This document shows positions 57,591 to 59,790 of a stretch of 64,000 bases of DNA, in pieces. The translations under genes were made by a program, and so were the position numbers. The notes under the pieces are model-generated. The model made no database searches. It was not told the origin of the DNA and worked only from the letters and a program-made list of their open reading frames with translations. Origin of the DNA: an uncultured archaeon (lineage in GTDB: Archaea; Asgardarchaeota; Lokiarchaeia; Sigyniarchaeales; SOKP01); the NCBI GenBank assembly GCA_964486045.1, contig CAZALK010000001.1, positions 616,242 through 680,241 on the forward strand. Direction: 5' to 3'. Within the stretch, counting starts at the first letter, position 1, and the number at the start of each line of letters is the position of its first letter.

Positions 57591-57995
57591 ATTCAGTTTG
57601 GATCTGATTTAGGAATAAATCAAGAAGATATAGAGAAAATTAGTCCTCAAATTACGTTTATTACATCTAATGCAGATATTGAGGCTATTGCGCTTGTAAG
57701 TTCTGAGGGTTACCAGATTGCATTTTCAGCATTACCCCAATATCATGCTGATGGAGATCAGTTTTGCGGTCTTGCAAGTGCATTATTGATGACAGGGAGA
57801 TCTACAATTCAAACATTGTTTCAAGAGGATTTAAGTGAAATCATTGTAAGAGCAGAAAATGGCTACATAATCATAACCAATGCGGGACGATTAGTAATAG
57901 TATGTGCGGGAACTATTATTGATACTTTGATGAAATCTGTGAAGGTCATGCGCATTGCGGCTAAAAATTTATATAAGATTTTCGAAAATAGATAG
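57591..57995 (+). CDS. Roadblock/LC7 protein (longer than the track call; start uncertain)
   Basis: Frame open from 57579: ...IEAIALVSSEGYQIAFS...FCGLASALLMTG...EIIVRAENGYIII; no ATG/GTG/TTG before 57786; ATT at 57591 follows AGGTG. Confidence 0.75.
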   Translation: MQFGSDLGINQEDIEKISPQITFITSNADIEAIALVSSEGYQIAFSALPQYHADGDQFCGLASALLMTGRSTIQTLFQEDLSEIIVRAENGYIIITNAGRLVIVCAGTIIDTLMKSVKVMRIAAKNLYKIFENR

Positions 57996-58178
57996 AATTT
58001 CCATTCTTATTTTCCTCAACCATTTTCTCGATAAATAAGACTATACATTAATTTATCATTAATGTAATGTTTGGCTCTCAACTCTATAATGCTATTTCAA
58101 AAATATCAATCGAAAAGAGTTAACTTTTTAAACCTTAAAATAATCAATATCATTAAATTATCTTTTAATAATTGATTT

Positions 58179-58253
58179 ATGACACTTGCTAGAAACCTAT
58201 TGTGGTGTTGGCAGTGGCCTTGGCGTGGCGATACCGCCTTATCATTGGAATAA
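58179..58253 (+). CDS. Trp-rich leader peptide (TrpL-like), 24 aa: MTLARNLLWCWQWPWRGDTALSLE
   Basis: ATG..TAA with TGG TGT TGG CAG TGG CCT TGG; 133 nt upstream of trpB2; locally GC-rich. Confidence 0.8.
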   Translation: MTLARNLLWCWQWPWRGDTALSLE

Positions 58254-58268
58254 TTAATTAAAAACACA

Positions 58269-58294
58269 TCTCTCTTACTCTTTTTTGTCTTTTC
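58269..58294 (+). terminator. Pyrimidine/oligo-T tract between the leader and trpB2 (candidate conditional terminator)
   Basis: TCTCTCTTACTCTTTTTTGTCTTTTC, 15 nt after the leader stop. Confidence 0.55.
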
Positions 58295-58386
58295 AAAAAA
58301 AAATTATATCTTATGTGCATTAATCTGTTGATATCCAATAAATTAATGACACACATTTAATATAAAGAAAAAAAAGTGAAACTAAA

Positions 58387-59790
58387 ATGATAGATTATTT
58401 CAAAGCAAGGATATTTTTAGAACCAAGCGAGGTTCCAAAGGAATGGATAAATATCATACCAGATCTACCCACTCCTATAACTCCATTGGTTAACCCAATG
58501 GATGGAAAACCTGCACCGCCAGAAATGGCATTTGCAATTTTTCCCAAAGAATGTGTACTGCAAGAAGTATCACAAGAGAAGACAATTCCTATCCCAAATG
58601 AGCTGAGAGAAATTTATGCTAAAACTTATAGACCAACACCCCTCCATCGCGCCTTAGGGTTAGAGCGGGAGTTGGGAATAGAAGGAGATGATATTAAAAT
58701 ATTTTATAAGAACGAATCAACATCTCCTACGGGATCACATAAACCAAATACTGCGATAGCTCAAGCATTCTATGCAAAAAAAGATGGATTAGAAGGGTTA
58801 GTTACAGAAACAGGGGCGGGACAATGGGGATCCGGCTTAGCGTACGGATGTAATTTATTCGATATCAAATGTACAGTTTACATGGTCAGAGCAAGTTTTA
58901 TACAAAAACCAGGTAGAAAAATCTTAATGAGGTCTTATGATGCTGAAGTTCATGCAAGTCCTTCAAGATTTACAGAATCAGGAAAAAGCTTTTTAGAAAA
59001 AGATCCAGATCATCCTGGAAGCCTAGGAATTGCAATCTCTGAAGCTATTGAACATAGTATGAGTAGCGATAAAATAAGGTATTCTTTAGGATCTGTAGTA
59101 AATTTTGTGCTTTTGCATCAAACGGTTATTGGGCAAGAAGCTAAGATACAATTAAATAAGGTGGGGATCAAAGATCCTGATATAGTAATTGGTTGTATGG
59201 GCGGAGGATCTAACTTCTCTGGGTTAATGATTCCTTTCGCTAGGGACAAATTAACTGGAGTTAACTCAGAAATTGAGATTATTGGGGTGGAACCACGAGC
59301 CTGCCCAAGTGTGTGTAAGGGAGAGTATCGGTGGGATTTTGGGGATACCGCAATGAAAGGACCTATCGCTAAGATGTACACATTAGGTCATACTTTTATT
59401 CCAAGCCCGATTCACGCTGGTGGATTAAGGTATCATGGAATTGCTCCAATAGTTTCAATTTTATACGACAATAAGGTAATATCAGCGACTATGCATCATC
59501 AAACCGAAGTTATCAAAGCTGGGATTCAATTTGCGAAAACGGAAGGAATTCTCCCCGCACCTGAAACCGCACATGCTATAAAAGAAACCATCGATCAAGC
59601 TTTAAAAGCTAAAGAAAACAACGAAAAGAAGGTAATTCTCTTTAATTTTAGCGGTCATGGATACTTTGATTTATTAGCTTATAAAGAATTTATGACAGGT
59701 GCATTAGAAGACTATGAATTACCAACCGAGAACATTCAAAAAGCCTTACAGTCAGAAGAAATGCCCAACATCAATGAAGCAGAATTTTAA
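58387..59790 (+). CDS. trpB2: Tryptophan synthase beta chain, TrpB2 type
   Basis: RPTPLHRA, GSHKPNTA, TETGAGQWG, PGSLGIAISEA, GGGSNF, HAGGLRYHG, SGHG. Confidence 0.96.
   Translation: MIDYFKARIFLEPSEVPKEWINIIPDLPTPITPLVNPMDGKPAPPEMAFAIFPKECVLQEVSQEKTIPIPNELREIYAKTYRPTPLHRALGLERELGIEGDDIKIFYKNESTSPTGSHKPNTAIAQAFYAKKDGLEGLVTETGAGQWGSGLAYGCNLFDIKCTVYMVRASFIQKPGRKILMRSYDAEVHASPSRFTESGKSFLEKDPDHPGSLGIAISEAIEHSMSSDKIRYSLGSVVNFVLLHQTVIGQEAKIQLNKVGIKDPDIVIGCMGGGSNFSGLMIPFARDKLTGVNSEIEIIGVEPRACPSVCKGEYRWDFGDTAMKGPIAKMYTLGHTFIPSPIHAGGLRYHGIAPIVSILYDNKVISATMHHQTEVIKAGIQFAKTEGILPAPETAHAIKETIDQALKAKENNEKKVILFNFSGHGYFDLLAYKEFMTGALEDYELPTENIQKALQSEEMPNINEAEF

Follow-up and report, generated by a model that had tools for sequence, protein, structure and literature searches.

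The gene for a stand-alone tryptophan synthase, trpB2, in an uncultured archaeon of the Asgard class Lokiarchaeia is preceded by a 24-codon open reading frame (ORF) in which four Trp codons fall within seven, and this leader is real, conserved, and very probably regulatory. It was found in about 100 relatives overall, and it is considered highly likely to be some form of Trp sensor that works through the ribosome. A more specific model, in which the ribosome senses the charging of tRNATrp and thereby gates premature transcription termination by aCPSF1/FttA, stands at about even chances. From the sequence and its comparison among relatives, we infer translation of the leader, stalling on its Trp codons, the direction of control, and the entire output step.

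In the 64,000-nucleotide stretch of DNA analyzed here (the window), the leader ORF occupies positions 58179–58253 on the forward strand, with Trp codons at 58203, 58209, 58215, and 58221 (codons 9, 11, 13, and 15). A conserved archaeal promoter precedes it, and trpB2 follows, with its start located 133 nt 3′ of the end of the ORF; a re-reading of the sequence bore out the description of the ORF in the first-pass annotation of this DNA. The putative regulated gene (58387–59790, forward strand; 467 codons) encodes a tryptophan synthase beta of type 2 and exceeds the cut-offs of TIGR01415 (589.9 bits; cut-off, 518.85) and PRK12391 (642 bits), in agreement with the earlier gene call. Its nearest TrpB2 relatives are found in Promethearchaeota metagenome-assembled genomes (93% identity), which supports the Asgard assignment made from the letters alone, and Candidatus Lokiarchaeum ossiferum B35 provides a genome of the same order. 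The gene 5′ of the leader (57591–57995, forward strand) encodes a Roadblock/LC7 protein (PF03259) and has no ATG, GTG, or TTG at its N-terminus; in its relatives, a conserved ATT/ATA codon follows 7 nt after a retained AGGTG Shine–Dalgarno (SD)-like motif, which suggests a conserved non-AUG start.

A BRE–TATA-like promoter is located at 58118–58134 on the forward strand (TATA, 58125–58132), where it forms a conserved block in the alignment of relatives (A1). A matrix for this element was built from 28 leaders and applied to 48 held-out leaders. Its only strong match in the window starts at 58118 and includes TTTTTAAA at 58125–58132 (15.3 bits; next best, 0.7), the TATA-like element that the first-pass annotation had placed at about 58125. 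For 46 of the 48 held-out leaders, the best match was positioned 50–90 nt 5′ of the leader ATG, and the upstream match was stronger than any internal one in 47 of 48, with means of 11.4 bits upstream versus 2.6 bits inside the leader. The matrix gave no support for a promoter inside the leader, including the AT-rich stretch 5′ of trpB2. Because the promoter, by motif, is upstream of the short ORF and none was detected internally, the ORF is very likely contained in the trpB2 transcript; the usual archaeal TATA spacing would put the start site near 58155–58158, about 22 nt before the leader ATG. Four leaderless orthologues have a similar motif 74–95 nt before trpB2 itself. A genome-wide TATA-to-ATG profile was flat and uninformative.

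The element is specific for its cognate amino acid. Among the 2,256 genes of the whole genome that have an intergenic short ORF within 400 nt upstream, only two show four Trp codons in eight, and both are trp genes, trpB2 and trpD. The second such ORF, of 16 codons (L031:5751–5801, forward strand; contig C17 of the host genome, G000), precedes trpD, with which a trpD-C-F-B-A-E-G operon opens, and is accompanied by two of the RNA hairpins described below, H2 and H4. Matches to the core motif in metagenomes were upstream of trpB2 in six of six cases. As side observations on the operon, six of its seven proteins contain no Trp as called, and an AAC(3)-family N-acetyltransferase-like gene (below cut-off; L031:4759–5592, forward strand) lies directly 5′ of its leader.

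Conservation extends well beyond the host genome. The leader was present at all 28 same-genus trpB2 loci fetched first and at 76 of 86 non-redundant close trpB2 loci, with 10 lacking it. In other Promethearchaeia, a W-x-W type ORF end shortly 5′ of the stop was found at 18 of 20 trpB2 loci, a count that covers class-level loci with upstream sequence outside the host's family, and 13 of 15 trpD operons have such a leader (for one of them, the sequence read contains no in-frame start). Cultured Lokiarchaeum ossiferum has it at both trpB2 and trpD (L040, L070). The proposal that Trp-rich short ORFs be sought at trp genes of other Asgard genomes was likewise fruitful: the Trp codons are in frame and conserved in relatives, and in other Asgard classes Trp-rich leaders occur in families f8, f9, f19, f21, f23, f27, and f12, with none seen at the loci examined in f10, f14, f17, f18, and f20. 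The first-pass annotation had named loss of the Trp codons in relatives and a trpB2 start site downstream of the short ORF as grounds for refutation, and on both points the sequence comparisons favored its interpretation. Since kin are not independent, these counts reflect inheritance under selection rather than independent origins. Most same-genus genomes contain trpB2 and yield no trpD match, so that the leader often heads the sole Trp-making gene. TrpB2 probably has a role in indole salvage.

The distribution of the leader is largely complementary to that of the repressor TrpY. No TrpY match was obtained in the host genome, which is 99% complete, or in its family (0/40). In the two class-level genomes that lack the leader at both trp loci (trpB2 and trpD), trpY is encoded divergently from trpB2, and ten further loci with adjacent trpY all lack the leader. 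Exceptions to this exclusion are G056, in which both occur at one locus, and f12, in which a leader is combined with TrpY elsewhere. The f12 leader (L219, L223, L225, L226, L228, L229, L256, L261, and L262) is 17–20 codons long with one or two Trp codons, lies 150–230 nt before trpB2, mostly has a fixed GPRGPV-type end, and is located 3′ of TGTACA-like repeats; these repeats resemble TrpY boxes, and a repressor and a leader may act jointly there, or the peptide may be of the arrest type. At L203–L206 and L242 (f14, f20), where neither leader nor trpY was seen, a small HTH-like ORF directly precedes or overlaps trpB2 and is possibly a third regulator.

The leader RNA can be divided into several predicted elements on the forward strand. 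H1 (58183–58216) is a tentative helix from single-sequence folds, in which the first codons would pair with the W-Q-W codons; its covariation did not exceed that of shuffles, with three outer pairs tested one column off the folded register. H2 (58218–58248) is a hairpin identified from folds and an alignment of 69 leaders, which spans or adjoins the leader stop and has a 5′ arm that begins within the last Trp codons. It consists of a core at 58227–58238, an alternative register from 58222, and basal pairs between 58218–58223 and 58242–58248; four basal pairs are present in 95% of cells across the 69 leaders, and an equivalent stem is found in distant lineages. The stability of H2 relative to shuffles is modest (mean z, −1.6 in the family and −0.8 for the host copy). 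The first-pass annotation had pointed to a GGCG-ATAC-CGCC hairpin (58227–58238) with a second GGCG partner (58222–58225). Both are present, and both registers appear in constrained folds. UGGC units pair with the 3′ arm in two ways, and the two GGCG partners are two registers of one local hairpin and not the arms of a terminator/antiterminator pair.

Downstream of H2, a pyrimidine- and U-rich tract (58269–58294) with two U4 runs constitutes a candidate site for aCPSF1/FttA loading and termination. The tract, whose position after the stop had been noted before, begins 16 nt past the stop and 20 nt past the extended H2, and 24 of its 26 nucleotides are pyrimidines, a value reached by only 0.1% of 1,813 upstream windows in the host genome. 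Across leaders, the 50 nt 3′ of H2 contain a mean of 2.4 U4 runs versus 0.7–1.1 in control intergenic regions, and two or more runs occur in 80% of leaders versus 18%–31% of control regions. Several distant leaders have C-rich tracts without any U4 run. The 3′ half of the tract forms a weak A–U hairpin, H3 (58281–58300), in the constrained fold. In agreement with the first-pass annotation, a bacterial terminator scan detected no classical hairpin-plus-U terminator, and a hairpin followed immediately by U's was seen in family f2 only. An Rfam search of the leader returned no family, only two chance matches (E values of 5.7 and 9.8).

Farther downstream lies H4 (58310–58357), a conserved bulged hairpin confined to trp leaders of the host's family, which was defined by covariation and captured in a model (R1). 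The tested structure shows 40 two-sided changes, many of them G–U, versus 15 in shuffles. Model R1 has two significant matches in the genome, both in trp leaders; H4 is present in 74 of 101 family genomes, and all new matches with a readable leader precede trpB2 or trpD. Two genomes, G089 and G221, have no H4 match at trpB2 (G221 was checked and also lacks the leader there) and carry the element at trpD instead. At three further loci (L131, L133, and L194), the Trp ORF has been lost and H4 kept, 40–90 nt before trpB2, which makes them natural deletion variants; L194 also retains the 3′ arm of H2. A DNA operator is disfavored as an interpretation of H4, one-sided changes being mostly G–U; by eye, it lacks the tandem G–A pairs of a K-turn; and, as it was not found at the Cys leader (below) or outside the host's family, a general leader element was also rejected. 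The loop and 3′ strand (58336–58342) contain a nearly invariant UCCAA that resembles the tRNATrp anticodon loop and is complementary to UUGG, and one C of the loop is conserved despite having no partner in H4. H4, the basal extension of H2, and the paralogous trp-operon leader are all additions to the first-pass annotation.

To model the effect of translation, the 69 leaders were folded under constraints representing six ribosome states, with the ribosome placed on the individual Trp codons or on the stop, using the archaeal footprint of 27 nt (PMC7261190). H2 alone responded to ribosome position. Accessibility of the U tract remained at 0.44–0.47 whatever the position, and the SD/ATG region (0.57–0.59 unpaired) and H4 (0.35 unpaired) were likewise constant in all states. 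With the ribosome at the Trp codons, H2 is at its leading edge, and the footprint stops short of the U tract and causes no refolding there. No mutually exclusive terminator and antiterminator were obtained in the host's family in these folds, and a possible 2:3/3:4 pair was seen in L077/L078 only. Because only H2 changes, the switch cannot be simple refolding, and the insensitivity of the SD region, H4, and the U tract disfavors both a classical switch and SD sequestration in the host's family. The expectation that the mechanism would differ from that of E. coli was right. As to the two outputs first proposed, termination at the U tract or initiation at trpB2, the termination branch of the presumed regulation is better supported, since SD/ATG accessibility is constant, U4 runs are enriched, and aCPSF1 is encoded in the genome (TIGR03675, 878.7 bits, above cut-off).

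Based on these data, a simple model would suggest that the ribosome controls access of the termination factor to the nascent RNA. Loki-aCPSF1 reads U4 tracts and terminates transcription in vivo in Methanococcus (PMC8716108); FttA requires nascent RNA of about 36 nt in which positions −30 to −36 are U-rich, and a coupled ribosome has been hypothesized to exclude it sterically (PMC11616081). Transcription would begin 5′ of the mini-gene, and a ribosome would translate the leader ORF. When charged tRNATrp is plentiful, the ribosome would clear the Trp codons, reach the nearby stop, and leave; naked U-rich RNA would then exit RNA polymerase, and aCPSF1 would load, cleave, and terminate transcription ahead of trpB2. 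Under Trp scarcity, the ribosome would linger at the Trp codons, right behind the compact hairpin H2 and so close to the polymerase, and aCPSF1 would be excluded during transcription of the U tract. Next, H3 and H4 would fold, the remaining leader being A-rich, and the polymerase would read into trpB2, with H4 as a candidate shield of the read-through transcript. According to You et al., Rho-type factors terminate upon translation arrest, a polarity opposite to that of the model unless the stalled ribosome stays beside the polymerase.

Alternatively, the output may be post-transcriptional, with a stalled ribosome shielding the mRNA from 5′–3′ or endonucleolytic decay, or with H4 mediating trpB2 initiation. 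The strong conservation of H4, its position some 30 nt 5′ of the trpB2 start, and its persistence at the three ORF-less loci fit such a role, as do the nuclease activity of aCPSF1 (PMC11616081) and the precedent of mycobacterial Cys leaders that act on a ribosome-binding site (10.1101/834739). This output is nevertheless unlikely: pairing of the SD/ATG region and of H4 is independent of ribosome state, and a seven-gene operon preceded by the same leader would be controlled more simply at transcription. A candidate switch in which the 3′ arm of H2 would pair at long range with the loop of H4 was rejected on account of frequent middle mismatches and a lack of covariation.

The response of H2 to the ribosome also admits a version of the same sensor in which H2 is itself the "on" structure. 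Here, H2 would fold when the ribosome stalls on the first Trp codons and hide RNA that the termination factor needs, and a ribosome at the stop would melt it and allow termination. In most lineages examined, H2 indeed persists when the ribosome is stalled at the first Trp codon and disappears once it occupies the last one or the stop, a geometry equal to that of the E. coli 2:3 antiterminator. In family f2, moreover, a longer stem with compensatory changes always begins 5 nt past the last Trp codon, whereas the position of the stop varies. However, in the host's family the U tract starts 3′ of H2 and is equally accessible in every modeled state, and H2 would refold once the ribosome leaves the stop, making this variant quite improbable.

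A ribosomal sensor entails translation of the leader, and the alignment, anchored on in-frame starts, was analyzed for a coding signature. The start codon is retained in 69 of 69 aligned leaders, TGG occurs 272 times in frame versus 49 and 12 times in the other two frames, and Trp spacing differs by whole codons, a signature that supports translation, short of proof. The last Trp codon is 1–5 codons from the stop in 46 of the 47 leaders examined, Cys leaders included. The host copy is the exception, with its stop 10 codons past the last Trp codon because of a 1-nt deletion; the same deletion in its two closest relatives (L002 and L003) rules out a sequencing error as the cause of the longer ORF. 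The codon after Trp begins with C in 239 of 272 cases, which generates UGGC units, and the peptide outside the Trp codons is free to vary across families.

This conservation of UGGC at the nucleotide level could instead point to a non-ribosomal mechanism, in which a Trp-responsive protein binds the repeats as RNA or DNA, in the manner of Bacillus TRAP, or in which the ORF encodes a trans-acting micropeptide. The invariant bulge and loop bases of H4 are typical of a protein-binding site. The in-frame starts, the whole-codon shifts in spacing, the proximity of the stop, and the own-codon runs at the same position before other amino-acid genes (below) all speak against it, and such a mechanism is very unlikely. 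Least probable of all is a TnaC-like nascent peptide whose sequence arrests the ribosome on free Trp or indole rather than on uncharged tRNA: the host's family shows good conservation of the WQWPW core and of the N-terminal MAT, and f12 keeps its GPRGPV ending with so few Trp codons, but beyond the Trp codons the peptides vary freely between families, their length ranging from 11 codons to about 65, the C-initial following codon points to a constraint at the RNA level, and the Cys, Leu, Arg, and Ile leaders employ their own cognate codons.

These other leaders were recognized in the same genome. In an unbiased scan of the 3′ ends of short ORFs, the trpD leader ranked second, and rank 1 was a 23-codon ORF with seven terminal Cys codons (L051:6081–6152; G000:C25:32080–32151, reverse strand) before a cysteine-synthase-family gene. 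This Cys leader is conserved in five of five orthologues, its stop lies inside a hairpin loop, and its transcript is probably leaderless. Short ORFs rich in Leu (G000:C34:9111–9260, reverse strand), Arg (G000:C14:22301–22372, reverse strand), and Ile (G000:C1, about 43570–43650, forward strand) precede leuA-like, argJ-like, and ileS-like genes, respectively. Together, these leaders suggest a general system; that Asgard archaea use leader attenuators genome-wide for Trp, Cys, Leu, Arg, and Ile, with a stalled ribosome gating aCPSF1/FttA in each, is a tentative extension with slightly less than an even chance. As a separate observation, a conserved 60-codon Cys-rich, zinc-ribbon-like ORF before a second cysteine-synthase-family gene (L101, L103–L105, and L108–L110) looks like a real small protein rather than a leader.

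No report of leader-peptide attenuation in archaea was found in the literature searched, which included few subscription journals. Archaeal Ribo-seq papers list short ORFs in 5′-UTRs and assign them no amino-acid-sensing role, and a 2019 paper on archaeal trp control names TrpY and Tar as the only regulators. If the leader model is true, ribosome–polymerase coupling in Asgard archaea is tight enough for gene regulation, and control is exerted via the ancestor of the eukaryotic cleavage and termination nuclease. If the genome-wide reading also holds, attenuation would depend on neither Rho nor an intrinsic terminator, and the leaders would provide direct functional evidence of transcription–translation coupling in the lineage closest to eukaryotes. 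The element is compact, about 200 nt, and is present in cultured L. ossiferum, and Loki-aCPSF1 complements in Methanococcus (PMC8716108); a natural switch would make the hypothesis of mutual exclusion between ribosome and FttA (PMC11616081) directly testable in that host.

Among known systems, TrpY of Methanothermobacter and Tar (TK0271) of Thermococcus (PMC6737238) adjust trp expression to Trp supply, as proposed here, and TrpY adjoins trpB2 in other Asgard families. Unlike the Asgard leader, both are DNA-binding proteins that act at initiation (PMC6737238). In its general plan, the leader resembles E. coli trpL (Rfam Trp_leader) and the actinobacterial trp and ilvB1 attenuators (PMC1262725; PMC13236596), with a short co-transcribed 5′ ORF that has cognate codons close to its stop, a hairpin readable by ribosome position, a pyrimidine tract 3′ of it, and parallel leaders for other amino acids. 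It differs from trpL in its archaeal TATA promoter, in the lack of an SD before the leader, of a G–C terminator hairpin abutting a U run, of an exclusive terminator/antiterminator pair, and of an Rfam match, and in its alternating W-x-W in place of tandem WW. By analogy, the element most likely functions like trpL but is no classical attenuator.

TnaC responds to an excess of free Trp and controls a catabolic operon, whereas the signal here would be a shortage of charged tRNA at a biosynthetic gene. Rho-type leader control, as in E. coli tnaC and in the model proposed for actinobacterial cys leaders (PMC1262725), nonetheless shares with the Asgard leader the absence of an intrinsic terminator, a pyrimidine-rich loading tract right after the leader stop, and a stalled ribosome that would bar the factor, which in Asgard archaea would be aCPSF1/FttA, a CPSF73-family nuclease, in place of Rho. 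The leaderless polycysteine short ORFs of mycobacteria (the "Cys ribulon"; 10.1101/834739) likewise have cognate codons at the stop, overlap with a stem, and occur at several independent loci per genome, and the Cys leader of the host genome shares their layout; the mycobacterial stem hides a downstream ribosome-binding site, and no such pairing was found here. The layout of the Asgard leader is thus closer to factor-dependent leader control and to the mycobacterial Cys leaders.
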